A stretch of DNA of 64,000 nt from an uncultured Bacillaceae bacterium (lineage in GTDB: Bacteria > Bacillota > Bacilli > Caldalkalibacillales > Caldalkalibacillaceae): NCBI GenBank assembly GCA_937967685.1, contig CALBTX010000114.1:5570-69569 (forward strand), written 5' to 3'. Every line of letters begins with the position of its first letter. Positions within the stretch are counted from its first letter, which is position 1. This document shows positions 16,273-56,823 of this stretch, one piece after another. The notes below the pieces were generated by a model. The model saw only the letters and a list, made by a program, of their open reading frames with translations. It made no database searches and had not been told where the DNA came from. The position numbers and the translations under genes were made by a program.

Positions 16273-16304
16273 GATTCACTCTCGATTATACTCGGTTCAT
16301 TCTC
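16273..16304. repeat. 11-nt tandem repeat x3 just downstream of the ypiB stop
   Basis: Plus strand reads gattcactctc / gattatactc / ggttcattctc. The reverse complement resembles the last codons of ypiB (GATGATGAGTC). Confidence 0.6.
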
Positions 16305-16314
16305 AATGTTGACA

Positions 16315-16866
16315 TCACGACTCATCATCCCGCAATTGTTTCAGGCGCTGGCTTAAACGTAGAAATGTTTCGCGATCGCGCTTTTCCAACGAACGGTCAA
16401 TCTTTGCATATAACTGTTTTATTTCAAATTTTTCTAACGCTTCGTCCAATACCATGTCGGCTAATAAACTGTACAAAGTATTTGTGCGGACTCGATCTTG
16501 CGCTGAAAAAATGGATTCGCAGACGGCGGCATACTCAGGACACTGTTCGGATTTCGTGAATATGAGCTTAATAAAAATGTCCTCATCCGGGTTCAAACGT
16601 AGATCATGAAACGCTTTTTGAACATCAGAACTGATGATTTTTCCTTTTTTGAATTGAAAAGGCAGCCCTTTGATCCCTTTGGCAGAGATCACAATCGACC
16701 GGTGAACGTTGGTAATGTCATCGACAAAGCGGACTTTCTCCAACAACTTGTCCTCGGACATCAAGTAGGTCAGCAACCATGCGCATTCTTTCTTTTGTAA
16801 TTCATGGTTCTTGAGAAACCAGTCCACAAACGATCTCTTCTCCGCATTCGTAATCATCGGATTCAT
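16315..16866 (-). CDS. ypiB: UPF0302 protein YpiB
   Basis: MNPMITNAEKRSFVDWFLKNHELQKKECAWLL is typical of UPF0302/IDEAL-domain proteins. Synteny supports the call. Confidence 0.85.
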   Translation of the reverse strand: MNPMITNAEKRSFVDWFLKNHELQKKECAWLLTYLMSEDKLLEKVRFVDDITNVHRSIVISAKGIKGLPFQFKKGKIISSDVQKAFHDLRLNPDEDIFIKLIFTKSEQCPEYAAVCESIFSAQDRVRTNTLYSLLADMVLDEALEKFEIKQLYAKIDRSLEKRDRETFLRLSQRLKQLRDDES

Positions 16867-16920
16867 GACCCGTCTACCTCCCCTGTTCAGAGTGAGTGGC
16901 AGTGTTATATTATACATATT

Positions 16921-18006
16921 CTATTCGCCAAAAAAATTCCCTGCTTTTTTCCGGACATAGTGCCGCTCTGATTGAGCATGGACGCCGATTTGAATGAGAC
17001 CTAAATGCAGAAGCATTTGAATGATTCTTTCCCGAAAAATCGTCGGGACATCATCATAATAGTAACTTGAGATCCACGGAGAGATGGCATTGTAAAGCTT
17101 GTCAGTGGATATCCACTGCTGCAAAAGAACGGCATTCATCCAGTGAACAAGAAAAGGCAATGTCGGGAGAGGTTTGCCATACGTCTTCAGCCAGTAATGA
17201 AAACAGTCTTTTTGCTGCACTCGAAATAAAAGGGACGGATCAGTGAGCTTTGCATGCCCTGCCTCAGTGATATCAAGCCCGCCGGGCTCCTCTCGAATCC
17301 AGCCTCGGTCATAACTGAAGTCATAGATGAAGGCAAATCGGTTCGGGTAGAAAGGAAACCGTCTGCCATATCCAAAACGCCACGGTCGTCCTTCCACCAA
17401 TTGTTCCGCAACGCGCAATTTCTTCATTAACTGGTGTTGAAATCGCTTATGGAGCACACCTTCTTTCGTCAGTGGCGGACGCTTCTCGGCCACGAAGTGT
17501 AACCATGTTTTTAAATCATGCAGGAGAGACCGTTCTTCGTCTCTCACTGTCAGCCGGGCGGGTTCCGCATCAGGCAGATCGAATGCCCTTTGCCAAGCGC
17601 GAATGAACTGTTGCTGCAGAAACGGCCTGAAATCTTCCGGAATCTCATATTGAATGTGAAATTTGGTAGAGACAGGAAAAAGCCAGCCACTGTGGACGAG
17701 GCGAGCGATCCATGCCTTCGGTGAACCTTTTAAATCAAGCAGCTTTTGGATCAATGTTCCTTTCCCCATTAATTCTTCCAAACTGAACCAAGCTTTCGGC
17801 TGGAAAAGCAAATACGTCATCACATAAAAAATTTCTCGATCCAGTGTGGCAAACAAACGTTCATAGTTTCCGCTGTCTAGCATTTCATAATGAATGGTTT
17901 GGACAAGGTCAAGCTTGGAATGACGGTTGCAATCGCAGGCATAACGACCGGCGATTGCCCTCAAATCGGCCACATCTAGGTTCAGCAGATATTCCGATAG
18001 TTTCAT
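16921..18006 (-). CDS. Uncharacterised 361-aa soluble protein inserted between ypiB and ypiA
   Basis: Long ORF in the operon orientation. I recognised no motif. It is rich in W/F/Y and basic residues. Confidence 0.75.
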   Translation of the reverse strand: MKLSEYLLNLDVADLRAIAGRYACDCNRHSKLDLVQTIHYEMLDSGNYERLFATLDREIFYVMTYLLFQPKAWFSLEELMGKGTLIQKLLDLKGSPKAWIARLVHSGWLFPVSTKFHIQYEIPEDFRPFLQQQFIRAWQRAFDLPDAEPARLTVRDEERSLLHDLKTWLHFVAEKRPPLTKEGVLHKRFQHQLMKKLRVAEQLVEGRPWRFGYGRRFPFYPNRFAFIYDFSYDRGWIREEPGGLDITEAGHAKLTDPSLLFRVQQKDCFHYWLKTYGKPLPTLPFLVHWMNAVLLQQWISTDKLYNAISPWISSYYYDDVPTIFRERIIQMLLHLGLIQIGVHAQSERHYVRKKAGNFFGE

Positions 18007-18056
18007 CCCGTCACCTCACAACCCCGGAAGTTAGTTCTAGTATGGGTCGTGACGGG

Positions 18057-18104
18057 AACGCTTATGCTTCGGATCTGAAAAACGCTTATGCTTCGGATCT
18101 GAAA
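18057..18104. repeat. Perfect 24-nt tandem duplication straddling the ypiA stop codon
   Basis: aacgcttatgcttcggatctgaaa occurs twice (18057-18080 and 18081-18104). The stop TAA is at 18086-18088, inside copy 2. Confidence 0.95.
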
Positions 18105-19330
18105 ATCATATCCCGGATGTCTTCTTGTTCAGGATTTATTTGCAATGATTTTCTCCATAATGCCAAGGCTTCTTGTACTTGTCCCTCATTGCGCAACAAG
18201 AACGCCAAATGGTTCAACGCCTCCGTGTCTTGTGCATTCGCCCGGACGGCCGCACGGTAACTCTGTTCCGCTTTGTCCCACTGTTCAAGCTCTTCATACA
18301 ACAGACCTTTGTGCACATGGATATCACTGCGCCCCGGCGAAATATCCGCCAATCGTTCCAAATAGCGCAAACTTGCTTCAAGGTCCCCTTCATCTTTTAA
18401 GAGCAGGGCCATCTTTTCCAGTGCGGCGATGTTGGCCGGATCTTTATCTAAAGCGAGTTGCAGCTGTTCCTTAGCCTGGTGTTTTGCTCCGGTCTGTATG
18501 GCCAATTTTGCCTTTAACTCGTTTAGGCGGGCGTTCGTATCATCATATTTCAGGCCTTCTTCCACAACAGACAAAGCCCGTTCGGTGTCTCCTTCATGCA
18601 TATATGCTTCGACGAGAAACGGATACAAGGAAGTATAGTGGGGATCGGCATCTTTTAAACGGTTTAAGGCGGAAATCACGGATGGCCATTTGCGCATTTG
18701 AAAAGCGACCAGGGCATAACCAAACAACAGATCAGGTGTCTCCGTTCGTTCCATGGCCTCTTCGTAATATGCCAGCGCCTCTTCAAACCGGCCTAGGTGG
18801 GCGCAACAATCCGCCATTTTGGCATAATCAGGCTGAGTGCTTTGTTCAAAACATTCCAAGGCCAGCGCGTATTTTTCCTGTTCATAAAACACTTCACCTA
18901 ACGCCTGTTTTAAAATCGGTTGATCGGAATGTGACTGTAATGCTTCTTTAATTTTCATTTCGGCCACTTCAAATAAACCTTCGGACAAATAGATGTCGGC
19001 CGCGAGCAGGACGGCCCGGACAGCATCATCTTCTTCCTCGTCAATATGCCTTAACAATTCAAGGGCATCTTCATTTCGATCCGCTTCCATATAAAGTTCG
19101 GCCAGGGTTAAAATCAGTTCGGGCTCGTCAGGATATCGCGCATGCAACGTTTCCATGACGCTCAGCGCCTCGTCTAAAAAACCGTAGCGGTACAAAAACT
19201 GAGCTACTTCAAAACGCAAATCATCCGTCATTTGCGGGTGATCCAGCAGTCTTCGGATTTCCTCCACCCCTTCGGTGCTGTCGCCGAATTCAACCTTATT
19301 GAAATGCTTTTGAATTTCCTCGATAATCAT
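18086..19330 (-). CDS. ypiA: TPR-repeat protein YpiA
   Basis: Multiple TPR units (e.g. EALALWRKSLQINP) at the ypiA synteny position. Confidence 0.88.
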   Translation of the reverse strand: MIIEEIQKHFNKVEFGDSTEGVEEIRRLLDHPQMTDDLRFEVAQFLYRYGFLDEALSVMETLHARYPDEPELILTLAELYMEADRNEDALELLRHIDEEEDDAVRAVLLAADIYLSEGLFEVAEMKIKEALQSHSDQPILKQALGEVFYEQEKYALALECFEQSTQPDYAKMADCCAHLGRFEEALAYYEEAMERTETPDLLFGYALVAFQMRKWPSVISALNRLKDADPHYTSLYPFLVEAYMHEGDTERALSVVEEGLKYDDTNARLNELKAKLAIQTGAKHQAKEQLQLALDKDPANIAALEKMALLLKDEGDLEASLRYLERLADISPGRSDIHVHKGLLYEELEQWDKAEQSYRAAVRANAQDTEALNHLAFLLRNEGQVQEALALWRKSLQINPEQEDIRDMIFRSEA

Positions 19331-19413
19331 TTGCTTAAACCCCTTTAATGGTGTTCATGCGTATCATTGTGCACAAACTTGCAATGGCGTTCAATCCGTG
19401 TCTCAACGTCATA

Positions 19414-20343
19414 TCAGTTCCTGTCTGATTCGGTGTCATCCAAGCGGCTCTTAAATTCTTCCGCGGCACTGTACCCTTGCTGCATCAAATACCAGTTGTT
19501 CGCCGCCGCTTCGATGAGGCCGGCCACATCGCGGCCGGGTTGAAGCTGAATTTGAATATGGGGAATGCGAACATCCATATATTCGATATATTTCGATTCA
19601 AGTTCCAACTCATTGTTCAGAGAGTCTTTTTCCCATTTCGTCAGCTCGATGTCAAGGGCGATGCGCGTCTCGTCCTGAAACGCTTTTCTGCCGTATAAAC
19701 GAACGACATTTAACAAGCCGACACTGCGCAAGGCGAGAAATTCTTTATTGACTTCATTATGTGTTCCCAACAGGGTTTGGGGGCTCAGTTTTTTAAGAAC
19801 AACGATATCATCGGCCACAAGCCTGTGTCCCCGACCGATCAGCGTATGCGCTGTTTCGCTTTTGCCCACACCTGATTTGCCCCTGACTAATACGCCCAAC
19901 CCGGACACGTTGACACAAACGCCATGCACGGCAATTTCCGGGGCCAACTCTTTAGCCAAATAAGTATCAATCATGGCGATAAATTCGGCTGTCGATTGCT
20001 GGGTAAGCAGCAAAGGGATCCCTTCCTGCTCACAAAATTGGGTTAAATAAGTCAAGCCTTCTTGACCAGCGGTCACGATAAAACAGGGCGGATGATATTT
20101 GACAATATTGCCGATGCGCAGTTTGCGCTCTTCAACACTTAACTGATGCAAGAAGCTGATTTCTTTTTGGCCCAGTATTTGCACCCTTTCCATTGGAAAG
20201 AAATCAAAATAGCCGATAAACTCCAAACCCGGCCGGTGAGTCTTGGTCTTTTTGATCGTTCGCCGGAGATGATGGCTTGCTGCAAGCACTTGTAATGAAA
20301 ATTTTTTAACCAAATTCCCTACAGTAATTGATTTTTCATCCAT
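19414..20343 (-). CDS. hprK: HPr kinase/phosphorylase
   Basis: GKSGVGKSE P-loop, GHRLVADD signature and PGRDVAGLIEAAA C-terminal motif. ATG at 20343 (MDEKSITVG...). Confidence 0.9.
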   Translation of the reverse strand: MDEKSITVGNLVKKFSLQVLAASHHLRRTIKKTKTHRPGLEFIGYFDFFPMERVQILGQKEISFLHQLSVEERKLRIGNIVKYHPPCFIVTAGQEGLTYLTQFCEQEGIPLLLTQQSTAEFIAMIDTYLAKELAPEIAVHGVCVNVSGLGVLVRGKSGVGKSETAHTLIGRGHRLVADDIVVLKKLSPQTLLGTHNEVNKEFLALRSVGLLNVVRLYGRKAFQDETRIALDIELTKWEKDSLNNELELESKYIEYMDVRIPHIQIQLQPGRDVAGLIEAAANNWYLMQQGYSAAEEFKSRLDDTESDRN

Positions 20344-20383
20344 CGTCTTTCTTCCCTTCGTCAACATCACATCTACCATTGTA

Positions 20384-20432
20384 AATAAAAAAACCGCATA
20401 TTGCACCCCTTGTAAAGGCTTACAATATACGG
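20384..20432 (-). terminator. Strong intrinsic terminator inside the hprK 5' leader
   Basis: On the minus strand: CCGTATATTG-(19 nt with an inner CCTT/AAGG helix)-CAATATGCGG followed by TTTTTTT. It ends about 40 nt before the hprK ATG. Confidence 0.8.
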
Positions 20433-20493
20433 CACGGCTATAAAACCGAATATCTAAATGGATAGGAGTGGAGAGAAACCATACTGTATCTCT

Positions 20494-20521
20494 ATTATAG
20501 CCCCTCCACTCACTATGTCAA
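20494..20521 (-). promoter_or_regulatory. Near-consensus sigma-A promoter (TTGACA-16-TATAAT) with an upstream A-tract
   Basis: Minus strand reads aaaaaatagTTGACAtagtgagtggaggggcTATAATaga. Confidence 0.65.
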
Positions 20522-20604
20522 CTATTTTTTTAACATTTATTTGATTTTAACATTTAAAAGACGCTGTTCATCAAATGCCTGCGCGCCTGTTCAACCGATC
20601 ACGC

Positions 20605-21948: not shown

Positions 21949-21979
21949 TGATACACATCCTCCTTTTGACTGTCCAACA

Positions 21980-23086: not shown

Positions 23087-24174
23087 GACACATTTTTCAC
23101 CATTCGTTCTAAGACGTGAATAATCCGTTCATTTTGCGCTTCAGTGCCGATCGTAATGCGCAAAGACGTCGGATAGCCCAGCGCTTCCCCGGAGCGGACG
23201 ATAATGCCTTGTTTCAACAAAGCTTCAAAACACTGATGTGCCGGACGGTTGACATCGACCATGATAAAATTGGCTTCAGTCGGGAAGTACGACAGGCCCA
23301 ACTGTTGAAAAGCGGCGTAAAATTGCTCTTTTCCCGCACGGTTTCTTTGCACGCATTGGCGCATGTACGCTTGATCTCTCAGAGCGGCTATGGCCGCTTT
23401 TTGAGCCACTCTGGACGTATTAAACGGCGCGCGGACCTTGTTCAAATGGTCGATCAGATCGGGATGGCCGATGCCATAGCCAATGCGTAAAGCAGCCAAA
23501 CCGTACACTTTGGAAAAAGTGCGTAAAATGAGTACATTGGAGTGTTTGTCCAGCAGAGCCAATGAGTCCGGATAATCTTTTGCTGTCACGTATTCATAAT
23601 ACGCTTCATCAACGACGACCAAAACATCGCTGGGCAGTGACTCCAACAGGTTGGCTAACGCATCATGCGGGACATACGTGCCTGACGGATTGTTCGGATT
23701 GCACACCCAAACCACCCTTGTCCGCTGATTGACTCGCTTGCTCATTGCCTCTAAATCATGCACCCCGTCTTTCAGAGGCACTTCAATGATCTCAGCCCCT
23801 TCGATCAGCGCATTGATTTTGTACTCGGCAAACGAAGGGGTGGCCATCACCGTATTCGTGTCCGGTGAAAGAAAAGTACGGCAAATGAATTGGACGATTT
23901 CATCAGAACCGTTGCCAAAAATTAACTGATTCTGATCGATATGATAAAAATGGGCCACCGCCTCGCGCAGTTCGGCGGCATACCCGTCAGGATAAACGGC
24001 CAGCTCAGAAAATTCTTCCCGCATCGCCTGCTGCACAAGGGGCGACGGACCGAACGGGTTTTCATTCGAAGCTAGCTTGATCACTTCATCCAATTGGTAT
24101 TCCCGCTTCACTTCCTCGATCGGTTTTCCGGGTTCATATACGGGAACATCGATGATATGTTTTTTGGGCTTCAT
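23083..24174 (-). CDS. hisC: Histidinol-phosphate / aromatic aminotransferase
   Basis: Class-II aminotransferase with LASNENPFGPS and TFSKVYGLAALRIGY (PLP lysine). Confidence 0.93.
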   Translation of the reverse strand: MKPKKHIIDVPVYEPGKPIEEVKREYQLDEVIKLASNENPFGPSPLVQQAMREEFSELAVYPDGYAAELREAVAHFYHIDQNQLIFGNGSDEIVQFICRTFLSPDTNTVMATPSFAEYKINALIEGAEIIEVPLKDGVHDLEAMSKRVNQRTRVVWVCNPNNPSGTYVPHDALANLLESLPSDVLVVVDEAYYEYVTAKDYPDSLALLDKHSNVLILRTFSKVYGLAALRIGYGIGHPDLIDHLNKVRAPFNTSRVAQKAAIAALRDQAYMRQCVQRNRAGKEQFYAAFQQLGLSYFPTEANFIMVDVNRPAHQCFEALLKQGIIVRSGEALGYPTSLRITIGTEAQNERIIHVLERMVKNVS

Positions 24175-24269
24175 CTGCTTTCACCTCTATTGATCCTTTG
24201 TTCTGCTGATGATCTATTGTTCTGTTGAGATGAGATCAGTCTGTCGACCTGCATTTAATGTCTAGTTTA

Positions 24270-25190: not shown

Positions 25191-25283
25191 TTCTATACGT
25201 AAACCTGATCAAACTTTTTAACGTCAACTTGACCAGCTTTTTTACGTAGACTTGACCGAGTTTCTATGCGTCATCCTATTCTC
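25191..25283. repeat. About 23-nt tandem repeat x3-4 in the trpB-trpA spacer
   Basis: Units are ttctatacgtaaacctgatcaaac / tttttaacgtcaacttgaccagc / ttttttacgtagacttgaccgag / tttctatgcgtcatcctattctc (weaker). Confidence 0.75.
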
Positions 25284-28125: not shown

Positions 28126-29146
28126 GTTTCAGGGCACCCTTTCTGGATATCATCCGCTGATAATGTTGCTGAACTTTCCCGCTGTCAAGCAATGCTTTGG
28201 CCAGTTGCACGCCTTCAGCCATGTTTTTTGCTTTGCCTCCCACATATAAAGCTGCCCCGGCATTAAAGGCAACGATGTTGTACGCTGCACTGCGATTGTT
28301 TCCGGCAAACACATCGCGGATTATGGCGGCGCTCTGGCTGGCATTTTGAACTTGAATATGTGTAAGAGGATATCGTTTTAAGCCGACTTCTTCTGGAGTC
28401 AGGAGATATTGCCGAATGGTGCCTGCTTTCAATTCGGTCACCCTGGTCGGCCCGGAAATGGATAATTCGTCCAAACCGTCTTCCCCTTTGACAATGAGCA
28501 CGTGACGCGAACCTAATTCCTTTAAGGTTTCGGCAATTTTTAGACTGTAGGCGTCATCATACACGCCGATCACCTGGTTTTTAGCTCCCGCCGGATTGGT
28601 CAGCGGTCCCAGCAGATTGAAAACCGTTCGGAAGCCGATTTCTTTACGGGTCGGGGCGACATGCTTCATCGCTTGATGATAAAGGGGGGCAAACATGAAG
28701 CACATATGATCCGTGCGCAAAGCCTCCCGTATGCCTTCCGCCGATATTTTGACGGGCAACCCGAGTTCTTCAAGGACATCGGCACTCCCGCTCAAACTGG
28801 AAACCGAACGGTTGCCGTGCTTGGCGATATTCAGGCCGGCTGACGAAGCGACAATGGCACTCGCCGTGGAAATGTTAAACGTGTTCGTTCCGTCTCCCCC
28901 TGTTCCACACGTATCAACCACAGGGGCCAAGTCATCGACAGGGACCATTAAAGCATGATCCCTCATCGCTTCAGTTAGACCGATCAATTCTTCCGTTTCG
29001 ATCCCCCTGAAACTCAACAACGTGATAAAACTGCTCATTTGTGACGGCGTCGCTTTTCCTTGCAGAATGATGCGCATCGCCTCATAACTCGTCTTCCTCG
29101 TCAAGATTTCTTTGTTCATCAGTTGACTGAGCACTTTTTTAAACAT
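28118..29146 (-). CDS. trpD: Anthranilate phosphoribosyltransferase
   Basis: DTCGTGGDGTNTFNIST motif. The internal ATG at 29146 overlaps the trpE stop. The 84-codon upstream extension lies inside trpE. Confidence 0.93.
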   Translation of the reverse strand: MFKKVLSQLMNKEILTRKTSYEAMRIILQGKATPSQMSSFITLLSFRGIETEELIGLTEAMRDHALMVPVDDLAPVVDTCGTGGDGTNTFNISTASAIVASSAGLNIAKHGNRSVSSLSGSADVLEELGLPVKISAEGIREALRTDHMCFMFAPLYHQAMKHVAPTRKEIGFRTVFNLLGPLTNPAGAKNQVIGVYDDAYSLKIAETLKELGSRHVLIVKGEDGLDELSISGPTRVTELKAGTIRQYLLTPEEVGLKRYPLTHIQVQNASQSAAIIRDVFAGNNRSAAYNIVAFNAGAALYVGGKAKNMAEGVQLAKALLDSGKVQQHYQRMISRKGALKHA

Positions 29147-30716
29147 GGACCCCATCCCCCTGATTTGTTCGCTCAAAAATTTTTTCGGCCAACTGAACGG
29201 CAACGAGCATCGCTCGAGCTTTATTCCGGGTTTCCTGCCATTCTTTCTCCGGTACGGAGTCAGCGACAATGCCTGCCCCGGCCTGGATATGAGCCTTGCC
29301 GTCATGAACAAAGATCGTTCGAATCGCGATGCAGGAATCATGATTTCCCGAAAACGAAAAATACCCGACCGCGCCGGAATAAGCATGACGTGCGTCATTT
29401 TCCAATTCAGCCACGATTTCCATGGCCCGAATTTTGGGAGCCCCGGTCACTGTTCCCGCCGGGAAACAAGCGAATAAAGCGTCTACGGCATCATGTCCGT
29501 CCTTCATTTGGCCTTCAACAGTGGAGCAAATATGCATGACATGAGAAAATTTTTCAATCTGCATATGTTTAGTGACTTGCACCGTTCCGAACTGAGCCAC
29601 CCGACCGATATCGTTTCGTCCAAGATCAAGAAGCATGTGATGTTCGGCCCGCTCTTTTTCGTCCGCCAGCAGTTCTCTGGCCAACGCTTCATCCTCTTCC
29701 TTCGTTTTTCCTCTCGGCCTTGTCCCCGCGATTGGATTGGTTTCCGCCTTGTTCCCGACCAATTTGACCAGCCTTTCCGGTGAGCTACCGATAATGTTGA
29801 TCCCATCCCCCAAATCGAGATAGTACAGATAAGGAGACGGGTTGACCATCCTGAGCACACGGTATATATTGAACGGATCCGTTTCGATATCGAGGGTGAA
29901 ACGCTGGGACAACACGGTTTGAAAGACATCGCCAGCCCGAATGTATTTTTTGATTTTCTGTACAGATTCAAGGAAAGACTGCCGGTCAAAATTAGAACTG
30001 ACTTGAGACCAATCCACTTGAGGCCGTTCACTCGGAAGATGAAACAGTTCAAATTCATCCTGTTTCAGCCGTTTAAATACGCGATCAATCCGTCTAGAAA
30101 TGTGCGCACACGTTTCTTCGTAACTCAATTTTAATTCCTCTTCGGTTTGTGCCCGGTCCACTCTCAAATGAGAAATAAAGGTGATCTCCTGTTGCAAATG
30201 ATCAAAGGCAATCATTTCGTCGCAAAACATCAAGCGGATCTGATCCTGTTCAAAAATGTCTTGTCTATGTTTCGGAATGTCCTCAACCAACGTTATCGCA
30301 TCATAACCGACGTAACCGATCGCACCTCCGCTGAATGGGGGAAGGTCCAGCTCCTGCGGAACTCTGTACGTTCGCAACAATTTTTTTAAGAGCTCCAAGG
30401 GTTGGTTGCTGACCCGCGAGGCAAACAACTCGTCGGAAAAAAGACTGTCCTTCGCCGGACCATCCGATCGCAGTGGTTCGATATACCCCTTCCCATCGCG
30501 TACGGAAAACACGACAAAGGGTCGATTGCCGATAAACGAATATCTGCCCCACTGTTCGCCGCCTTCGACACTTTCAAGCAAAAAGGAGTAAGCTTCTTTC
30601 ACTTGTTGAAAGAGACGAATCGGAGTTAAATTGTCTGACCATACCTTTCGACTGATCGGAATAAAGGAATACGTGTCTTTCAAACGCAACACTTCTTCAA
30701 AGGAAGGATAAAACAT
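29139..30716 (-). CDS. trpE: Anthranilate synthase component I
   Basis: LLESVEGGEQWGRYSF and GAVGYFSFSGN motifs. ATG at 30716 has a GAAGGGGTG RBS. The longer ORF would run through the attenuator. Confidence 0.95.
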   Translation of the reverse strand: MFYPSFEEVLRLKDTYSFIPISRKVWSDNLTPIRLFQQVKEAYSFLLESVEGGEQWGRYSFIGNRPFVVFSVRDGKGYIEPLRSDGPAKDSLFSDELFASRVSNQPLELLKKLLRTYRVPQELDLPPFSGGAIGYVGYDAITLVEDIPKHRQDIFEQDQIRLMFCDEMIAFDHLQQEITFISHLRVDRAQTEEELKLSYEETCAHISRRIDRVFKRLKQDEFELFHLPSERPQVDWSQVSSNFDRQSFLESVQKIKKYIRAGDVFQTVLSQRFTLDIETDPFNIYRVLRMVNPSPYLYYLDLGDGINIIGSSPERLVKLVGNKAETNPIAGTRPRGKTKEEDEALARELLADEKERAEHHMLLDLGRNDIGRVAQFGTVQVTKHMQIEKFSHVMHICSTVEGQMKDGHDAVDALFACFPAGTVTGAPKIRAMEIVAELENDARHAYSGAVGYFSFSGNHDSCIAIRTIFVHDGKAHIQAGAGIVADSVPEKEWQETRNKARAMLVAVQLAEKIFERTNQGDGVHV

Positions 30717-30830
30717 AGGTGAACACCCCTTCAATTGGAGTTGAAGAGGAATCAAGAGAGGATCTGGACATGCCCGAGGAGGAAATGCATTTGGGAGTAT
30801 GGCGCGGACAAATGGACAAGCAAACGCCCT

Positions 30831-30861
30831 TAAAAAATAAAAACAGGGCCCGGAAGCCCTG
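30831..30861 (-). terminator. trp leader attenuator (intrinsic terminator)
   Basis: On the minus strand: CAGGGC-ttccgg-GCCCTG followed by TTTTTATTTTTT. It lies about 115 nt upstream of the trpE ATG and downstream of the triplet array. Confidence 0.8.
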
Positions 30862-30941
30862 CGCATGTTTCCTTGAAGACATACTTCAAACTTGGGACGA
30901 TCTGCAGTCGTTGCTTTGACCGTCTCAAGTAGAAAGACGTT

Positions 30942-31011
30942 CTCCTGCTAGGCTCTCCTCTGCTCAACTCTCTCCACTTTGCTAAACTCTACTCATGCTT
31001 TAATGCAACTC
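30942..31011 (-). promoter_or_regulatory. TRAP (MtrB) binding site: array of about 11 (G/U)AG triplets in the trp leader RNA
   Basis: Minus-strand RNA reads GAG..AAG cau GAG ua GAG uu UAG caaagug GAG a GAG uu GAG ca GAG ga GAG cc UAG cag GAG. mtrB is present at 40177-40401. Confidence 0.85.
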
Positions 31012-31087
31012 GTAAATCCTTTTAAATCAACTCAACATGATATGAAACGCTATGTTATGAATCGCTCCCTCATATGCTGTTAATTGG

Positions 31088-31134: not shown

Positions 31135-32865
31135 CTACTTTTTGACACTTTCTTTCTGCTCGGCGGGTTCGTCGCTCCCTCTGTACCGAGCGTACGGCAA
31201 GGGATTCCACGTCCGGTATGCCAAATCTTCTTTGCGCAATGCTGCCGGAATTTCATCCAGAATTTTTTTGGCGGCAGCAAGCTCGCGTTGTGCCTCTTCC
31301 TTGTCCTGGTACATGAATTCATCTGAAGCTGTCTCAGGCGCTTGCGCCACTTTTTCTTCCAAGTCCTCTACAACCATTTTTTGTTGGGATCTCATGGCAT
31401 CGCGGGCTTGCTTTCTCCATTCTGGATGCAGATCACGGTTGGTATCTCCTATTGAACTGAATTCTTCAAACACTTCACTGTAGACGCGATCGGCATTGAG
31501 CCTCACATCCATCACCGCGGCTTCCAAGTCACGTATATTCAGCTCATCAGGGCTTAACGGCACATCGCGCTTCGGACCGCCCAATCTTGTTCTTTCCAGA
31601 TAGAAGGGGAAAGTGCCTTTAACGATTTTGCCTACAGGGGAGATCGACTGCTTGTTTTCGTCAACACCTTTAGGCTGGATGCCCTGCATGGCGATGCGAG
31701 CAGACTCTGGCCGGACGATTTCCTTGGGCGGCAAGATGCCATGGCGCAGCATTTCGCGAATATTCGTTCCCGAGATGTTAATGCGCAAGCTATCATCGTG
31801 GCGGCACGTTTGCACGGTTGCCAGACTCGCACAACGCAGGCAATAGAAAACTTCGTGGAACAGGCGAATATCAATCCCCATTTCTTCCGGGGTAAATTCA
31901 TCGAATATCGAATGGCTGGCATACTTGTCGTAATAGTCCCCGATACCGGCATGGTCACGGCCGATCAGCGCGTGGGTACAACCATAGTTTTTCATGATCA
32001 GCGCGTGCAACACGGCTTCACGGGGACCGGCAAAAATATATGTCACCCTTAACGGAGAAAGAATGGACCGTTCTTTCGGATAATAAGTCTCGATCACACT
32101 CCGATAAGCCAGCATGCGGAATTCATGGCGGGTATACTCTCGTTTGGCCATTTCCACCAGCGGCTGGAGCAGTAAACCGTCAATTTCTTCAAGCGCATTT
32201 CGGTGAATATATTCGTGACCGCGGTGCAAAGGATTGGCACCGGTAATAAATCCGGCAACAGAACGAAACTTCTTATCTTCATAAAATAAATGCCACGTAT
32301 CTTTCGGTTCCATGCGCAATTTTTCAAAAGGACCCCAATTCGCGCGGCGTAATAGTTTCAATGGCCCCCCTAACGCATATTCTCCCATTCGGCGGTAAAT
32401 CGAATCAACACCGGGATGATTGCGATCATTCGTGCCGAAAAGATGGCGCGCGCGCTCTTCCTTATCATAAGCAAATATATCTTCGATTTTAAGGATGGCG
32501 ACCGGCTCTTTCGTGTCATCAGCGAGAGCCACTTCATCTCCAACCGACAGTGATTGAACCACTTCTTGATTGCGCTTGCCTATAGGAGCGAAGCTTAAGG
32601 GAACCGGCCAGATCAGGCCATTACTTAGCCGGCCGTTTTTAAGAACCGATTTGTAATCAGCTTCATTCATAAAACCCTCATTTGGTGATAGAACGCCGGT
32701 GGCAATCATTTCGATCGTGATCACTGCTTCTAAATCAACAACAATCATCGGCAGCTCTTTGGCCCTTGCTAGTTCCTCATCTCTTTCCCGTCCGGTTAAA
32801 ACGGTATTGACTAGTTTCCCGCCGTGTGGCTTCTGCGGATAGTTGGCAAACAGTGCTTGATCCAT
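31135..32865 (-). CDS. ATP-sulfurylase-fold protein (Sat-like) with a variant active-site loop and a roughly 180-aa uncharacterised C-terminal extension
   Basis: PHGGKLVN PUA-like N-terminus, HRGHE, AGPREAVLHA, IGRDHAG, and a CxxC...CxH zinc knuckle. The canonical QTRNP loop reads ITGANP. The tail has no P-loop. RBS is GGGGAGGAG. Confidence 0.85.
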   Translation of the reverse strand: MDQALFANYPQKPHGGKLVNTVLTGRERDEELARAKELPMIVVDLEAVITIEMIATGVLSPNEGFMNEADYKSVLKNGRLSNGLIWPVPLSFAPIGKRNQEVVQSLSVGDEVALADDTKEPVAILKIEDIFAYDKEERARHLFGTNDRNHPGVDSIYRRMGEYALGGPLKLLRRANWGPFEKLRMEPKDTWHLFYEDKKFRSVAGFITGANPLHRGHEYIHRNALEEIDGLLLQPLVEMAKREYTRHEFRMLAYRSVIETYYPKERSILSPLRVTYIFAGPREAVLHALIMKNYGCTHALIGRDHAGIGDYYDKYASHSIFDEFTPEEMGIDIRLFHEVFYCLRCASLATVQTCRHDDSLRINISGTNIREMLRHGILPPKEIVRPESARIAMQGIQPKGVDENKQSISPVGKIVKGTFPFYLERTRLGGPKRDVPLSPDELNIRDLEAAVMDVRLNADRVYSEVFEEFSSIGDTNRDLHPEWRKQARDAMRSQQKMVVEDLEEKVAQAPETASDEFMYQDKEEAQRELAAAKKILDEIPAALRKEDLAYRTWNPLPYARYRGSDEPAEQKESVKK

Positions 32866-35547: not shown

Positions 35548-35575
35548 AAATAGACCTCCTGAAATAGACCTCCTG
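35548..35575. repeat. Perfect 14-nt tandem duplication of the aroC Shine-Dalgarno region
   Basis: Plus strand has aaatagacctcctg twice. The mRNA therefore reads CAGGAGGTCTATTT CAGGAGGTCTATTT G ATG. Confidence 0.95.
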
Positions 35576-36922: not shown

Positions 36923-37039
36923 ATCTACCAACTCCTATCTCTGCCACATTTTTAAGCAATAGCGTCACAATTATGGCTAAGCAAAATCGCGGTAACTACG
37001 GGAGAATTGTACCAAATATCATTATTGAAAGCAATTCAA

Positions 37040-46840: not shown

Positions 46841-46962
46841 CTTTATTTTCCTTAACTAACACTTTTTTCCTATACCGAATCTTTTCCCCTCTGTTTGAAT
46901 CGTTTTTCTCCTATATCGAATCTCTTTTTTCCTATACGGAATCCTTATTTTTGCCTCGAATC
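46841..46962. repeat. Array of about six 19-21-nt tandem units, each ending in GAATC, spanning the der stop and the der-plsY spacer
   Basis: Five clear units end in GAATC at 46881, 46901, 46922, 46943 and 46962. A weaker sixth unit (46841-46860) ends in AAC. Consensus is tYTTTTYCCTATAYCGAATC. The der stop (46932-46934) lies in the fourth clear unit. Confidence 0.9.
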
Positions 46963-48257: not shown

Positions 48258-48340
48258 GTCTGGCACACTACCTTTCTGCATGCAGAGTTGGCCGGCTTGT
48301 TCAATTTTCTTCTTTATCATAAGCTGTCAGACAATGACAT

Positions 48341-48811: not shown

Positions 48812-48855
48812 CTGAATGTCCCTCAATTTGATTTTGAGCGACGTTTGATGTCGCT

Positions 48856-49334: not shown

Positions 49335-49343
49335 CCCTCTTCC

Positions 49344-50225: not shown

Positions 50226-50228
50226 CGG

Positions 50229-50873
50229 TTAACCCTCCTGTTTGCTTTGCGGCCGAAGCAGTTTAAGCATGTATCGGGACAGCTTCAGAATATAAGCCGT
50301 CGTATAAGCCGAAGCGGTGACAAAGACAAACCCTATGGCCAGCTGGTCTCGGAATAACGCATCACCGATATAAATCACATCGGCGTATGCCGATTGTAAA
50401 CTTTTATGCAACCATTCACCCAGAACAAACCCGCCTGTCATCATCAGCCATTGTTGTTGTACTGACTGCGTCGTCAACGTTAAAAACAAAGTAAACGCTA
50501 ATGGCACAAGATAGATCGGTGATATGATCATTAAAATGGGATCCATGGCAAACAACTCATAGCTCAGCGCATAAAATACACCCAAAAAAATGACCACAGC
50601 TATCATTTGTAGGCGAAATGGCGAGGGATCTGTCCATATTCTGTACAGAAACAGAAGGGGGATACAGACCATTGAACCTATATTGATCATCATCTCCGAA
50701 GAAAGCGGCACATAAAACGCTTGCCCAATCATGACCAGCAGAAGAAAAAGACAGGCCCGGCGGCGTTGACCGCCAAGGGCGCGTTCATCTTCCCAAATGA
50801 AATCCAGCCAGTGGGTCACCATCAAGATGAAGACCATCCAACCGATGATTATAAACAAATAACCGTCGTTCAT
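50229..50873 (-). CDS. yphA: Polytopic membrane protein YphA
   Basis: Hydrophobic 214 aa, ending 4 nt upstream of the YIEGIA gene. Confidence 0.75.
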   Translation of the reverse strand: MNDGYLFIIIGWMVFILMVTHWLDFIWEDERALGGQRRRACLFLLLVMIGQAFYVPLSSEMMINIGSMVCIPLLFLYRIWTDPSPFRLQMIAVVIFLGVFYALSYELFAMDPILMIISPIYLVPLAFTLFLTLTTQSVQQQWLMMTGGFVLGEWLHKSLQSAYADVIYIGDALFRDQLAIGFVFVTASAYTTAYILKLSRYMLKLLRPQSKQEG

Positions 50874-50975
50874 CCTTTTTTCATCCTTTCAGTTACAGTA
50901 TCACACAGTTGCAGCATTTTTATAGCCCTGATCAAGGGCGTGTGAAGGAATCGTCGATTGAGAAAAAGGCAATGC

Positions 50976-51008
50976 ATAAAAAACCAGCACCGATAACGAT
51001 GCTGGTTG
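50976..51008 (-). terminator. Intrinsic terminator about 105 nt after rpsA
   Basis: On the minus strand: AACCAGCA-tcgttatcgg-TGCTGGTT followed by TTTTT. Confidence 0.75.
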
Positions 51009-51087
51009 CCAAATGACGAACACTTTAGCTGCGGAAAGATATTCGAATGTATCTTAGGCTGTTACTGACAAAGTACAGCTAACTGTT

Positions 51088-51123
51088 GAATTTATGCTGG
51101 ATTTTATGCGGGATTATTTAAGT
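51088..51123. repeat. 12-nt tandem repeat x3 straddling the rpsA stop codon
   Basis: gaatttatgctg / gattttatgcgg / gattatttaagt. The stop is at 51114-51116, in the third unit. Confidence 0.75.
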
Positions 51124-52403: not shown

Positions 52404-52549
52404 GTTCCAAGTCCTCCTTACTCCCCCACTTTGGTGGGGACACTCTGACGCCTGCAAACATTTCGGTCAGAGGTGCAAAATCTTTCAATCAAAAAGTTTT
52501 CTTCTTTCATCATACTACATTTAACACACTTGTGCCAATTCGATATCGC

Positions 52550-53146
52550 TTAAGAAGCTTCCCGGTATTCATCAAGCAAGCTTTGAATACTGTTCATCAT
52601 CCGTTCGGTTGCTTCCCGGGCATTTTCTTTCGTCACTTTATCCCCACGCAAATCCTCGATCATGACAGGCGGGCCGATGGCGACCTTCATTTTTCTAAAT
52701 AAACGGTATTGACCGATGATCGCGATGGGAATCACCGTGCATTTTTCCTTGAGGGCGATGAAACCGGCGCCTGTAAATGCGGGACCCAGTTCACCCGTCT
52801 TCGATCTTGTTCCTTCAGGGAAAATCACAAACGCATCCCCGTTTTTTAATACTTGCAAAGACGTCCGAATCGCCGCTTTATCCGGTGCACCTCTTTTAAC
52901 GGGAAATCCTTTTAGTTTTTTCAAGTAAGCGGCAATGAGCGGTATTTTAAACAGTTCCGCTTTAGCCATAAACGTGACCGGTCGCTTAATGCTCACCCCA
53001 ATCAAAGGCGGATCCAAAACATGAATATGGTTTGCACATAATAGCACCGGACCTCGTTTTGGTATATGTTCAGCGCCAATCACTTCATTTCGAAAAAATA
53101 TTCGAAAAAAAAGCATGCAAATGAAGCGGCTGAGCCAATAAATCAT
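52550..53146 (-). CDS. 1-acyl-sn-glycerol-3-phosphate acyltransferase family protein
   Basis: NHIHVLD (NHxxxxD) and FPEGTRS motifs. ATGA overlap with the cmk stop. Confidence 0.88.
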   Translation of the reverse strand: MIYWLSRFICMLFFRIFFRNEVIGAEHIPKRGPVLLCANHIHVLDPPLIGVSIKRPVTFMAKAELFKIPLIAAYLKKLKGFPVKRGAPDKAAIRTSLQVLKNGDAFVIFPEGTRSKTGELGPAFTGAGFIALKEKCTVIPIAIIGQYRLFRKMKVAIGPPVMIEDLRGDKVTKENAREATERMMNSIQSLLDEYREAS

Positions 53147-53835
53147 GGACGTACCTCTCTTTCGCTGTAAATGCATGTTTTGGCCAGATGGACAATTTTT
53201 TCGACCACTTCATTTACAGTAAGGAACGTTGAATTCAGCTCTATCGCATCCGCCGCCTTCTCAAGCGGCGCAAATGTGCGGCCGCTGTCTCTTTCATCCC
53301 GCAGCCGAATCTCTTGCTCCACCTTATCCAAGGAGGCTTCTTCTCCTCTGTTTTTCAATTCGGCATGTCTCCTTTTGGCCCGTTCCTTTAATGACGCCGA
53401 AAGATAAATCTTCACCTCGGCATCGGGGAGGACATGGGTGCCGATATCCCTTCCGTCCATCACAACCCCTTTGTCCTTGGCCATCGTTTGCTGTATGCGA
53501 ACCATTTCTTGCCGCACCTTTTGGTGACCGGCGACAAAGGACACGTTGTTGGTAACGCTCCGCTCTCTAATTTGTTCCGTCACGTCATCATTGTTGACGA
53601 AAACTTTCTGCCCATGTTCTGTTGGCGTCAATTGAATACGAATCCTGTCAAGCAAAGCTGAAAGTGCTTCTTCGTCGTGCACATCGACCTGATCTTGCAG
53701 CGCTTTCCAAGTTAAGGCACGGTACATCGCACCGGTATCCACGTAGACGTAATCCAATCGTTCAGCCACGATCTTGGCCACTGTACTCTTACCGGCGCCT
53801 GCAGGGCCGTCTATGGCAATATTGATTTTTTTCAT
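53143..53835 (-). CDS. cmk: Cytidylate kinase
   Basis: IAIDGPAGAGKSTVAK P-loop and GRDIGT. Confidence 0.96.
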   Translation of the reverse strand: MKKINIAIDGPAGAGKSTVAKIVAERLDYVYVDTGAMYRALTWKALQDQVDVHDEEALSALLDRIRIQLTPTEHGQKVFVNNDDVTEQIRERSVTNNVSFVAGHQKVRQEMVRIQQTMAKDKGVVMDGRDIGTHVLPDAEVKIYLSASLKERAKRRHAELKNRGEEASLDKVEQEIRLRDERDSGRTFAPLEKAADAIELNSTFLTVNEVVEKIVHLAKTCIYSEREVRP

Positions 53836-53883
53836 ACGTTCACCTCAACCTACATCCCGCAACAAAAAAATCATACCATACGG

Positions 53884-54057
53884 CTAACGTCGTTGCAACG
53901 TCGCTTTTGCCTGAACACGGTCCTCATGGAATACACCTTCGTAGCGCACCGATTTATTGACCAAAGCTTGATGATCTTCACTGGAAAGAAGAAACATTTG
54001 GGATAGAACGAGGGCGGTCAAAAGGAAAACCAAACATATTAATAACAGTTTCTCCAT
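53884..54057 (-). CDS. ypfB: Small single-TM protein at the ypfB position
   Basis: MEKLLLICLVFLLTALVLSQMF... Called on synteny only. Confidence 0.5.
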   Translation of the reverse strand: MEKLLLICLVFLLTALVLSQMFLLSSEDHQALVNKSVRYEGVFHEDRVQAKATLQRR

Positions 54058-54133
54058 TTGAGCAGAAAGCGCCCGAAAGTATGTCAACAGGCTCAACCCC
54101 TTTACCTTTAGTGTTGACGAGGATTTAAGCACC

Positions 54134-54184
54134 AAACAAGGGGCTCTCAAAAGTCACCGTGACTTTTTTAAAGCCCCTTGTTGT
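54134..54184 (-). terminator. Nested hairpin after ypeB (weak U-tract)
   Basis: CAAGGGGCT ... AGCCCCTTG outer stem enclosing AAAAGTCA-ccg-TGACTTTT. Confidence 0.5.
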
Positions 54185-54234
54185 TGCGCCGGAATATACT
54201 TTCACTGGGAAATCTGCTTCACTGTGCGCTTCAG

Positions 54235-55590
54235 TTAAACGATAGGTTCGGCCTGTTTCATCTTTTCGATCATTTCCTCAGTTCCTGTTTTGGCATCGAC
54301 AAAGATGCGGAATGTTTCTTGATCTATCGTGCCCAACAATTCATAACAGAGCTTGACCTCACCGGGTTCTGTTTCAATCATGCTCAGGTGATCTTCCATC
54401 ACTTGGAAATTACTATTAAGCGCCTCTTTAGCTTCCTCGAGGGAAATCTCCGGTTTCGGCACGTCCACATGACCGTCATGATTGATCACATAATCCAGCC
54501 CTTCATAACCGATGAGATCACCATTATCCAGGGCCACTTGAACACGGACGGCCTCTGGGTAAATGCGGACGCCATCCTGCTCGTAAACAAAGTCAAATAC
54601 ACCGACGTTGTCGTATTGATCTGACTCAACGGCCGCCATAGAAGTCATGCCCCGTTGTTCCAAAAACTTCTCCGCTTTTTGTTGGGCTTCGTACAGACCG
54701 ATTTTCGATTGCTCAATATCACGGCTGTCCAGCATCCAGAGAATATGCCCTCCATTTTTGGAAACATCGACGATGACCGGGTTTTCACGTTCAGCGGCCT
54801 TCAGGGAGACAGAATAGGAACTGAAGTCGTTCCCTTCACCGTTTTTGACCACTTCAGTCTTCACCTTTTCGCCGAATCCCATAAACTGTTTGGCTTTTTG
54901 TGCGGCTTCATGTTCTGACACAGGGGCTCCCTCAATGAGCTTTGTTTTGTCACTCGACTGACTCGTTATTTTGTTTTCCTCGGCTCCTTGCTCTGTTTCA
55001 ATGTAACCTTCTACTTGCTTATCAATGGATTCCATGCCATCTAAAAGTGTTTTGTCCATATCGGCATTTTCTTCGGCTGCCGCCATCTCGACATCCATCC
55101 ATCGCAAACCATCACTTAAAACTTTCGTTTGAATTTTACGGAGTTCACGTTGCAATTCTTTGGACTGTCCGTGTAATTTTTTCAATTCGTCCCATTCGGC
55201 CTCAGTCAGGGGCTCTGTTTCCAAGTTTCTCATCCCAATGCCATAAGTGTAATCTCCGACTTGGGCCAAAAATGTTTCAATTTTACTGAAGGGGGTTAAA
55301 TTCATCGGCAACTGACCGATGTTTGACTGAGCATCATAGGCGATTCTCCAAATATTCGCCATACATGGGGCTAATAATTTGCGCGAGTTCGTTGCAATTG
55401 ATTTGCCCAGTTCATCTTCCAGATTAGCCATATCGTTGTTCAGATCATGGAAGGCGCGCTGGTAACTGTTTTCCGCCTTGATCAAAACAGAATTTTTGTC
55501 TTGATGCTCTTGATACCCCCAATAAGCGGTTCCAGCCAAAGCAAGTATTAATACAGCGTAACCCGCCACTGCAATAATCCGGGATAACAT
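54235..55590 (-). CDS. ypeB: Germination protein YpeB
   Basis: Collinear with B. subtilis YpeB (YWGY.EHQ.K..VL, RWMDVEMA, PepSY repeats). ATG at 55590 has a GGAGGG RBS. Confidence 0.93.
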   Translation of the reverse strand: MLSRIIAVAGYAVLILALAGTAYWGYQEHQDKNSVLIKAENSYQRAFHDLNNDMANLEDELGKSIATNSRKLLAPCMANIWRIAYDAQSNIGQLPMNLTPFSKIETFLAQVGDYTYGIGMRNLETEPLTEAEWDELKKLHGQSKELQRELRKIQTKVLSDGLRWMDVEMAAAEENADMDKTLLDGMESIDKQVEGYIETEQGAEENKITSQSSDKTKLIEGAPVSEHEAAQKAKQFMGFGEKVKTEVVKNGEGNDFSSYSVSLKAAERENPVIVDVSKNGGHILWMLDSRDIEQSKIGLYEAQQKAEKFLEQRGMTSMAAVESDQYDNVGVFDFVYEQDGVRIYPEAVRVQVALDNGDLIGYEGLDYVINHDGHVDVPKPEISLEEAKEALNSNFQVMEDHLSMIETEPGEVKLCYELLGTIDQETFRIFVDAKTGTEEMIEKMKQAEPIV

Positions 55591-55606
55591 TGACAACTTC
55601 CCTCCT

Positions 55607-56593
55607 TTATCTGACAAACAGATGTTTGCCGATTCGTTTCACCGGTTGTTTGTTAAACATCCACTGGGATGTGGCCGTTGCTGGATTGTAATAGTGTGTC
55701 AGTCCCCCTGTAGGGTCCCAGCCGTTGATGGCGTCCATCACCGCTCTTCTGGATGTTTCATCAGGCTGCAGCCAGATTTGACCGTCGGCCACTGCCGTAA
55801 ATGCGCGCGGTTCAAAAATGACGCCGGATACTGTATTCGGAAATTCCGCACTGTTCACCCGGTTGATGATGACGGCGGCAATGGCCACTTGACCGATATA
55901 AGGCTCTCCGCGTGCCTCTCCGTAAACGGCATTAGCCATTAATTGAATGTCATTTTCCGAAAAGCCAGCAGGAATATTCACAGCCGGGGCCACATGACCG
56001 ATATTTCTTTCACGTTGGGCAGATTGAGGTGTTTCCTGTGGAGCAGCACCTCCTTCAGGTGCCGGTTGAGCCGGAGCTTTCTCACGTTCCGGTTGGCGTT
56101 GTACTTGTCCCTCTTCTCGTTGCCTGCCCTTTTGCTGTTTTTCTTTCTGTGCGCGTTCGTCTAAATTGCCTGGATCTCTTTGTCCCGGGGGAGGAAGCCC
56201 CTCAGGTCCTTTTTTCGGCCCGTACGTGTCAGGGTCTTTTCCTTTTTCAAGGTGACTGTAAACATACTCTCTGTCAAAATGCGTGTACTGCTCTAATTTC
56301 TTTTTCAACTCATCCCCGACAAGTCCGTCCACCTCAAGCCCAAAATCGTGTTGAAAGTTACGCACCGCCCAATAAGTATTCCAGCCAAAAACACCATCTA
56401 TCGTTCCATGATAATAGCCGTAATTTTGCAGTCTGGCTTGCAGTTCAATGACATCATCCCCTGTTGCTCCACGCTGAATCACTTGATCGCTAAAAGCTTG
56501 CGTATCCTGAGCAAAAAAAGTAAAGAACAGGGTGATGATGAACAATGAACAAATGCTCCTTTTGAAGTATTTGTTCAACTGGTCCATGTTCAT
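55607..56593 (-). CDS. sleB: Spore cortex-lytic enzyme SleB (with a low-complexity Q/E/P/K linker)
   Basis: N-terminal PG-binding domain (GDDVIELQARLQNYGYY...DGVFG) and C-terminal Hydrolase_2 (GEARGEPYIGQVAIAAVIINR). Confidence 0.93.
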   Translation of the reverse strand: MNMDQLNKYFKRSICSLFIITLFFTFFAQDTQAFSDQVIQRGATGDDVIELQARLQNYGYYHGTIDGVFGWNTYWAVRNFQHDFGLEVDGLVGDELKKKLEQYTHFDREYVYSHLEKGKDPDTYGPKKGPEGLPPPGQRDPGNLDERAQKEKQQKGRQREEGQVQRQPEREKAPAQPAPEGGAAPQETPQSAQRERNIGHVAPAVNIPAGFSENDIQLMANAVYGEARGEPYIGQVAIAAVIINRVNSAEFPNTVSGVIFEPRAFTAVADGQIWLQPDETSRRAVMDAINGWDPTGGLTHYYNPATATSQWMFNKQPVKRIGKHLFVR

Positions 56594-56654
56594 TGTCCCT
56601 CCTATGTCATTTGCCTCGTATGGGTATTTTTCTACTCTTGACCACGATTTATGC

Positions 56655-56688
56655 AAGAAAAAAGAAAAGGATGTCCAACAGACATCCT
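56655..56688 (-). terminator. Intrinsic terminator after gudB
   Basis: On the minus strand: GGATGTC-tgttg-GACATCC followed by TTTTCTTTTTTCTT. Confidence 0.8.
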
Positions 56689-56765
56689 CAAAGAAAAGAT
56701 ATTAACTTAAATGCGTCTTCCGCTAGTCAATTTCTTAAACTTGCTGTATGAAATGAATCGTTTCC

Positions 56766-56823
56766 CTATACCCAACCTTATAGCCGAGGCTTCTATACCC
56801 AACCTCTATATCTGGAAGCTTCT
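56766..56823. repeat. About 27-nt tandem duplication straddling the gudB stop codon
   Basis: ctatacccaacct(t)ata.gcc.aggcttct is followed by ctatacccaacctctatatctggaagcttct. The true stop is at 56793-56795 and the downstream copy has diverged. Confidence 0.85.

Follow-up and report, generated by a model that had tools for sequence, protein, structure and literature searches.

The DNA considered here is a stretch of 64,000 nucleotides from an uncultured Bacillaceae bacterium (assembly GCA_937967685.1, contig CALBTX010000114.1, positions 5,570 to 69,569), which is referred to at this full length as the window. Its spacers carry short tandem duplications, several of which include the stop codon of the upstream gene. 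This raises the question of whether duplications are directed to gene ends in this organism or whether they arise throughout the genome and survive where they do no harm. The sequence-only reading that preceded this analysis had favoured a high duplication rate in the lineage combined with survivorship, and had named, as other possibilities, a process aimed at the ends of transcripts or of translation, or selection acting on the structure of 3' untranslated regions (UTRs). The analysis of the genome, of independent assemblies, and of related genomes points in the same direction. Most probably, the arrays are independent local tandem duplications of 10-50 nt, which are about ten times commoner by origin or fixation than in related genomes and which are purged from genes by selection.

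Tandem duplications in the genome and its relatives

The assembly comprises 2.64 Mb in 258 contigs, has a GC content of 47%, and is 96.9% complete. Genes were predicted with a simple codon-model caller of our own, which yielded 2486 genes and a coding share of 86%. Tandem repeats were searched with Tandem Repeats Finder (TRF; settings 2 5 7 80 10 30 500), and those with a period of at least 10 nt and a score of at least 50 were counted. This resulted in a genome-wide total of 502 tandem repeats (190 per Mb), which cover 5.3% of the non-coding bases. Wholly intergenic repeats account for 274 of these, 95 lie wholly in genes, and a further 95 contain a stop codon; a called start codon is included in 34, four of which hold both stop and start, and 8 show a partial overlap. 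In the spacers, 312 real repeats with a score of at least 50 stand against 2-3 after shuffling. The shuffled control that the sequence-only reading had proposed thus places the repeats far above chance.

The non-coding density amounts to 1.11-1.15 repeats per kb. Periods are mostly 10-35 nt, and the non-coding arrays comprise 310 with fewer than three copies and 97 with 3-7 copies. Repeats are somewhat richer in AT than the spacers overall (37.7% vs 42.7% GC). No 8-mer occurs in more than 7 of the 502 units. Because the units share no sequence, the repeats are independent local events and not copies of a dispersed element. A TATAC...GAATC-like motif noticed by eye in the units at der, gudB, and ypiB was considered as well, and k-mer counts over all units show no such family.

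The reality of the arrays was checked in contigs from many samples, which were located by exact match to the SpoVIF protein of the window. Ten independent metagenome or Logan assemblies (from ENA and Logan) align to window positions 34.8-55.1 kb at 99.75-99.96% identity, and the repeats at aroC, der, yphA, and rpsA show zero differences among them; the aroC repeat is identical in all four other assemblies that reach its position. The ten strains differ by a single indel over these 20 kb, namely the presence or absence of a 4-bp TGTT at 36967-36970 in the spacer upstream of ndk. Since the ten assemblies agree over the repeats, the arrays are genuine and fixed in the species across the 20 kb compared, and the concern that they might be assembly artefacts is settled for this segment. 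A copy-number difference was found at another locus (C66:17309-17396), where a perfect array of 4.9 copies of an 18-nt unit repeats the last five codons and the TAG of a DRTGG-CBS-4HBT gene. This array has one unit fewer in a contig from ERZ794974 and three Logan contigs break inside it, which suggests that the locus may be variable in copy number.

Relatives were processed with the identical pipeline on genome pieces of 20-400 kb each. The genome is the sole member of its genus among the species representatives compared, and the relatives align to it at 64-70% DNA identity. Non-coding repeats per kb of non-coding DNA amount to 0.17, 0.12, and 0.08 in three genomes of the same family (G001, G002, and G003, respectively), to 0.27 and 0.30 in two of the same class (G007 and G012), and to 0.074 in the pooled syntenic 20-kb pieces of 20 class genomes. 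The density in the present genome is thus 4-15 times that of every relative sampled. The pooled set contains four repeats, all in G012, so that 19 of the 20 pieces are without any, whereas non-coding repeats are present in 31 of 33 20-kb chunks of the present genome, and the mean per chunk is 3.0. Perfect non-coding duplications with a period of at least 13 nt reach 0.208 per kb compared to 0-0.104 in relatives.

The der locus provides a closer view of this difference. The best Der matches among 5.8 billion public proteins have 75-76% identity, and the syntenic 21-kb loci of the two closest Der relatives contain 0 and 1 repeat. The spacer between der and plsY is 133 nt long in the present genome and consists mostly of array, whereas the two closest relatives have 20 nt and -11 nt, the latter being an overlap. 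Because the two genes lie 20 nt apart or overlap in these relatives, the array is a derived insertion. The comparison with related genomes that the sequence-only reading had called for therefore comes out in its favour, as the closest relatives lack the arrays and the density is 4-15 times lower in the genomes sampled. In a relative with 75% Der identity, a perfect 16-nt duplication in two copies lies across the stop of folE (L163:17714-17745); events of this kind therefore also happen in other lineages, though rarely.

The distribution of the repeats relative to genes bears the clear marks of selective filtering. Repeats cover 0.3-0.5% of gene interiors and 2.8% of the final 20 nt of genes; the values are 6.5-10% throughout the spacers after stops and 5.5-7.5% before starts. 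Repeats in coding DNA mostly keep the reading frame, the period being divisible by 3 in 84 of 95 cases, and stop-straddling repeats have no frame bias (33:23:29). Among 98 stop-straddling cases, 85 have the working stop in the first copy, and in 65 of these 85 a ghost stop follows exactly one period downstream. Density also depends on gene orientation, with 1.56 repeats per kb in convergent, 1.27 in co-directional, and 0.72 in divergent spacers (convergent vs divergent 2.2-fold, p=7e-4); this order is expected if DNA of promoters and 5' UTRs is the most constrained.

A mechanism of the following kind would account for these observations. Local sequence of 10-50 nt would be duplicated head to tail, and a minority of the duplications have grown to 3-7 units. 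Such events would arise genome-wide, and purifying selection would remove those that break genes. The survivors comprise duplications wholly within spacers, duplications whose unit includes a stop, so that the protein is preserved by the first copy and the second is dead sequence, and, less frequently, duplications that cover a start codon or ribosome-binding site as well as in-frame duplications in genes. The earlier proposal of a high duplication rate combined with survivorship is supported by the 4-15-fold density, the in-frame coding repeats, the stops in first copies, and the order of the orientation classes.

Input, retention, and gene ends

An excess of repeats can result from more frequent duplication or from longer persistence. 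Repeat counts are flat or rising from 100% to 85% copy identity, which indicates steady input and long persistence and not a recent burst. Based on about 60-100 repeats per mismatch class, we infer that roughly one duplication is fixed per hundred or so spacer substitutions. An ordinary origin rate could in principle lead to such a load if duplications persist through weak selection, as in a small effective population with a reduced genome, or if deletions that collapse repeats are rare. Several observations agree with retention of this kind, namely the small genome of 2.64 Mb compared to 3.2-3.9 Mb in genus g3, the divergence of only 0.04-0.25% within the species across many samples, and an identity spectrum of the repeats that shows no early loss. 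However, selection looks effective in this species, because the ten strains have a pN/pS (the nonsynonymous to synonymous polymorphism ratio) of 0.12 over 20 kb, and polymorphism in spacers reaches 0.29 of the synonymous value, so that spacer sites are more constrained than synonymous sites. In addition, the spacers are overall no longer than those of relatives, and G001 from the same family is equally small (2.4 Mb) and has a low density. Retention is therefore regarded as an unlikely explanation. As selection looks effective and the equally small G001 has few repeats, raised mutational input appears to be the better supported cause.

Duplications could also be made at transcript or translation ends, or be kept for their effects on 3' UTRs, terminators, or translational coupling, and the description of the arrays as especially straddling stop codons had pointed to the gene 3' end. 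Whether stops are preferred was examined with the 5' ends of repeats at 760 genes followed by a spacer of at least 120 nt. Of the two 10-nt bins that precede the stop, one contains 18 and the other 21 repeat 5' ends, compared to a spacer average of 13.4 per bin, i.e. 39 vs 26.8 expected in the 20 nt before stops, which is an excess of about 1.5-fold over the adjoining spacer (p=0.016). The higher density of convergent spacers and the count ratio of stop-containing to intergenic repeats, which is 0.34 compared to a naive 0.15, also fit a process at gene ends. This ratio overstates the effect of stops, because much of the nominally intergenic DNA is long and repeat-poor: spacers of more than 400 nt have 0.47 repeats per kb, and they probably contain RNA genes or genes missed by the caller. 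Moreover, coverage hardly changes along the spacer and is only slightly lower before starts, and the ratio of coverage just before stops to the plateau is 0.31, close to the value of about 0.26 estimated for uniformly placed units of about 20 nt. The enrichment at stop codons is mostly harmless spill-over from the spacers and not the mark of a stop-directed system. The units have no common motif, stop-straddling repeats lack a frame bias, the closest relatives have no arrays, and stronger constraint on promoters and 5' UTRs would yield a 3' bias anyway. A dedicated 3'-end process or 3' UTR selection is accordingly very unlikely, and the emphasis on stop codons does not hold beyond the modest excess.

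Origin of the duplications and candidate repair functions

There are 133 perfect duplications with a period of at least 10 nt, and their units are unrelated between loci. For 130 perfect two-copy cases, the microhomology arm was measured as the partial third copy. Arms of 0, 1, 2, and 3 nt are present in 55, 24, 11, and 3 cases, respectively, which is close to a chance estimate of about 50:27:11:4, and the remaining 37 cases have arms of at least 4 nt. About 31% of the duplications thus look microhomology-mediated, with arms of at least 3 nt, and the rest do not. The suggestion that the duplications result from microhomology or slippage is qualified in that arms of at least 3 nt occur in only this share of the young perfect duplications, which is above chance; the others conform to chance. 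No sequence motif was found at the duplication junctions, so that there is no sign of a site-specific nuclease.

Duplications without microhomology might be footprints of end joining, in which staggered double-strand breaks, such as those of dormant spores, undergo fill-in and ligation by Ku and LigD. The genome encodes a Ku protein above the family cut-off and an adjoining open reading frame (ORF) that matches the ligase domain of non-homologous end joining (NHEJ) with 222 bits, just below its cut-off of 227.75 bits; the two genes lie together at C169:18.6-20.4 kb. The organism forms spores (it encodes SpoIVA, SpoVIF, and YpeB), and the perfect two-copy duplications with 0 nt of microhomology (42%) and the fit of the 0-3 nt classes to chance would be in accordance with end joining. 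Ku is, however, not discriminating, as it is also found in the low-density genomes G002, G003, and G007, the share of duplications with at least 3 nt of microhomology is well above chance, and an armless share of this size is ordinary, since reference genomes in general have 50-60%. A literature search on LigD-linked tandem duplication in bacteria returned nothing useful. End joining is thus considered an improbable source of the arrays.

An assembly artefact or a dispersed mobile repeat family of the REP, BOX, or MITE-like kind can hardly be entertained: although the assembly is fragmented and repeats are five times as frequent as expected near contig ends, the ten assemblies agree base for base across arrays over 20 kb, and the units have no shared consensus, the commonest 8-mer occurring in 7 of 502. 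Self-BLAST detected a single repeated segment of at least 150 bp (216 bp, at two contig ends), and the bin therefore contains no insertion-sequence copies. Within 150 nt of contig ends, 77 repeats are found compared to 14.7 expected, and 32 touch an end (e.g. C185:1-94, C98:7-38 and 4396-4428, C30:1-26, and C169:20441-20467). About 15% of contig ends lie at a repeat or at most 150 nt from one, and the genes for polA and for the NHEJ ligase each terminate in such arrays at contig ends. The repeats seem to contribute to the fragmentation of short-read assemblies and, because arrays break the assembly at contig ends, the true repeat load is probably above the count.

If duplications indeed arise more often in this lineage, a replication or repair function may be altered. 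The status of mismatch repair and RecJ had been proposed as a check, and no defect was found in these functions: MutS (1117 bits), MutL (794 bits), and RecJ (583 bits) are all above curated cut-offs with open frames, and RecJ is also present in all four relatives tested. The mutL gene (C151:12522-14466) carries an in-frame repeat, QQTEHQQTELQQTGHQQTEH, in the MutL linker, which is an example of a tolerated coding duplication. PolA is complete including its 5'-nuclease domain, and motifs of RecA, RecN, PcrA, LigA, SbcC, RecG, RuvB, and PriA were found. A DinG-type exonuclease is absent here and family-wide; its absence does not discriminate and was rejected as a cause. Motifs of a RecQ-family helicase are absent from the genome, and tblastn with RecQ/RecS of four relatives returned only weak matches to other helicases; one RecQ or RecS each is encoded in the examined pieces of G003, G010, G012, and G013. 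A stand-alone flap nuclease (FenA/YpcP) was not found either, and the assembly has no flap-nuclease domain other than the N-terminus of PolA.

The leading guess is that flap processing on the lagging strand would be faulty, or strands would misalign, in a genome without a stand-alone flap nuclease and a RecQ-type helicase. In its specific form, this would mean that a genus-level lineage has acquired a heritable, about ten-fold rise in duplication input, with many events lacking microhomology, through loss of a replication or repair function, with RecQ/RecS and FenA/YpcP as candidates; this version is possible, though doubtful. FenA is the more interesting of the two leads because Rad27/FEN has been linked to tandem duplication in yeast, where it is reported to control the rate of such events (PNAS 2026, PMC13167724).

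Several points weigh against raised input as the explanation. None of the repeats within the 20 kb varies among the ten strains, and no duplication has been caught arising; the difference in the 18-nt array, which is the sole copy-number change found, could be an assembly collapse in a contig of 3.8x coverage. Sampling of the relatives covers 20-400 kb each and the gene caller is crude, and perfect coding duplications, in small counts, are not clearly commoner than in G003 or G007. The public data reached contain no sister species, the nearest Der being only 76% identical. The missing RecQ and FenA are leads only, as they represent a correlation from a single genome of 96.9% completeness. Finally, the effects of rate and of retention are hard to disentangle, and polymorphism was tested on a single 20-kb stretch.

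Repeats of the window and known tandem-repeat systems

Tandem repeats of the window were taken from TRF, which yields 23 rows for the 64 kb, and from direct reading of the sequence, minus strand included, and the genes were identified by Pfam matches. The repeats at gene boundaries are listed in Table 1.

Table 1. Tandem repeats in the spacers and at the gene boundaries of the 64-kb window (positions in the window; a dot marks repeats listed without strand).
Repeat	Position	Strand	Location	Source
46-nt x2.0 duplication, 85% matches	6613..6706	.	spacer from the stop of a GT4 glycosyltransferase gene (6790..7926, -) to the start of a cca-type nucleotidyltransferase gene (5338..6573, -)	TRF, sequence, Pfam
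21-nt x1.9 duplication, 84% matches	16265..16304	.	11 nt beyond the stop of ypiB (UPF0302/IDEAL) at 16315	TRF, sequence, Pfam
Perfect 24-nt x2 duplication	18057..18105	-	3' end of ypiA (TPR gene), TAA at 18086-18088	TRF, sequence, Pfam
23-nt x2.6 array, 78% matches	25197..25257	.	162-nt trpB-trpA spacer, 54 nt beyond the trpB stop	TRF, Pfam
Two weak repeats: 10 nt x3.9, 15 nt x2.0	30958..31066	.	between ORFs 29139..30866 and 31135..32865	TRF, ORFs
Perfect 14-nt x2 duplication	35548..35575	-	just upstream of aroC	TRF, sequence
21-nt x4.3 diverged array, 68% matches	46862..46950	-	starts with the der stop (46932-46934), fills the der-plsY spacer	TRF
Perfect 11-nt x1.9 duplication	50869..50889	-	over the ribosome-binding site and ATG (50871-50873) of yphA	TRF, sequence, Pfam
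12-nt x2.1 duplication	51091..51115	-	abuts the rpsA TAA (51114-51116), two-base overlap	TRF, sequence
About 27-nt x2 duplication, copies roughly 80% alike	56766..56810	-	3' end of the gudB-type glutamate dehydrogenase gene, TAG at 56793-56795	TRF (as 13 x3.4), sequence, Pfam

All eight tandem duplications that had been described from the letters of the window were recovered by TRF and direct reading. On the minus strand, the stops of ypiA, gudB, and der each lie within the first repeat unit of their own array. At ypiA, copy 1 in gene sense includes the final codons and the TAA, and copy 2 is a non-coding ghost; at gudB, the TAG is inside copy 1. The statement that four arrays hold the stop of the upstream gene is thus correct for these three genes, whereas the rpsA array abuts its TAA, and the stop-containing third copy is weak. 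The repeat at aroC duplicates the AGGAGG ribosome-binding site together with its spacer. The absence of repeats inside coding sequence was nearly right as well, the in-gene rows of the window being two weak ones at 24081-24136 (76% matches, score 63) and at 17308-17332 (score 36). The der product ends in ...IRGKNKDSV* in the present genome and near ...IRQK* in the two closest relatives, and to judge from this comparison, the last five der codons may be derived from the repeat region. For the 361-aa ORF at 16921-18006, between ypiB and ypiA, there was no Pfam match at E<=1e-5, and a search for related loci based on YpiA gave nothing but unrelated TPR proteins.

Related bacteria can thus differ about ten-fold in their mix of insertion mutations, a difference that visibly shapes non-coding DNA. 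In the present genome, 3.8% of stop codons are contained in arrays, and most of these are followed by a ghost copy at a distance of one period. Ribosome-binding sites have been duplicated at aroC and yphA, and a der-plsY junction that is tight or overlapping in the closest relatives has been turned into a 133-nt spacer. Lineages of this kind are natural experiments for identifying the replication or repair factor by which short duplications are controlled in bacteria, and the arrays could act as strain-typing markers. If a heritable duplication-prone state through a lost repair function were true, bacteria would offer a natural parallel to the duplication phenotype of yeast rad27, and only the 5'-nuclease domain of Pol I would be left for flap processing in this lineage.

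Bacterial loci with variable numbers of tandem repeats (VNTRs), or minisatellites, are used for typing by multiple-locus VNTR analysis (MLVA), and Yersinia pestis has many VNTR arrays with units of 9-20 bp. The arrays described here resemble such loci in being locus-specific, in having units of 10-50 nt, in lying mostly in intergenic DNA or in frame, and in being unusually dense in particular lineages. In contrast to VNTR loci, most of them have two copies and many have diverged to 70-90% identity; no change of copy number was seen in ten strains over 20 kb, and a single array differs by one unit between two assemblies.

Microhomology-mediated tandem duplications (MTDs) provide another point of comparison. 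In two reports, tandem duplications are described as neutral in behaviour, arising everywhere, and purged from coding DNA (PMC13167724; bioRxiv 10.64898/2026.02.28.708716). Duplications without arms account for 13% of de novo, 25-30% of strain-variable, and 50-60% of reference-genome duplications (bioRxiv 10.64898/2026.02.28.708716). Like MTD products, the arrays in the present genome are single-copy local segments duplicated head to tail, some of which have then expanded. They are likewise neutral outside genes and depleted from coding DNA (0.3-0.5% vs 6-10% coverage) with the survivors in frame (84 of 95). Arms of at least 3 nt are present in roughly 31% of the young duplications. The armless share of 42% among perfect two-copy duplications is unlike MTD, though it is within the range that reference genomes generally show, and a density far above that of relatives is a further difference from MTD surveys.

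Prokaryotic tandem repeats in general are enriched in spacers, being rare in genes and rising away from start and stop codons (DetectRepeats survey, Nucleic Acids Research 2025, PMC12418385). The same position pattern is found in the present genome; unlike the survey, which is an average of thousands of genomes, this genome is the highest among those sampled in its class. The pattern itself is of a known kind and not a new genetic system. What is distinctive is how large the excess is within Bacillota, how cleanly stops and ribosome-binding sites are duplicated in some examples, and which gene losses are candidates.

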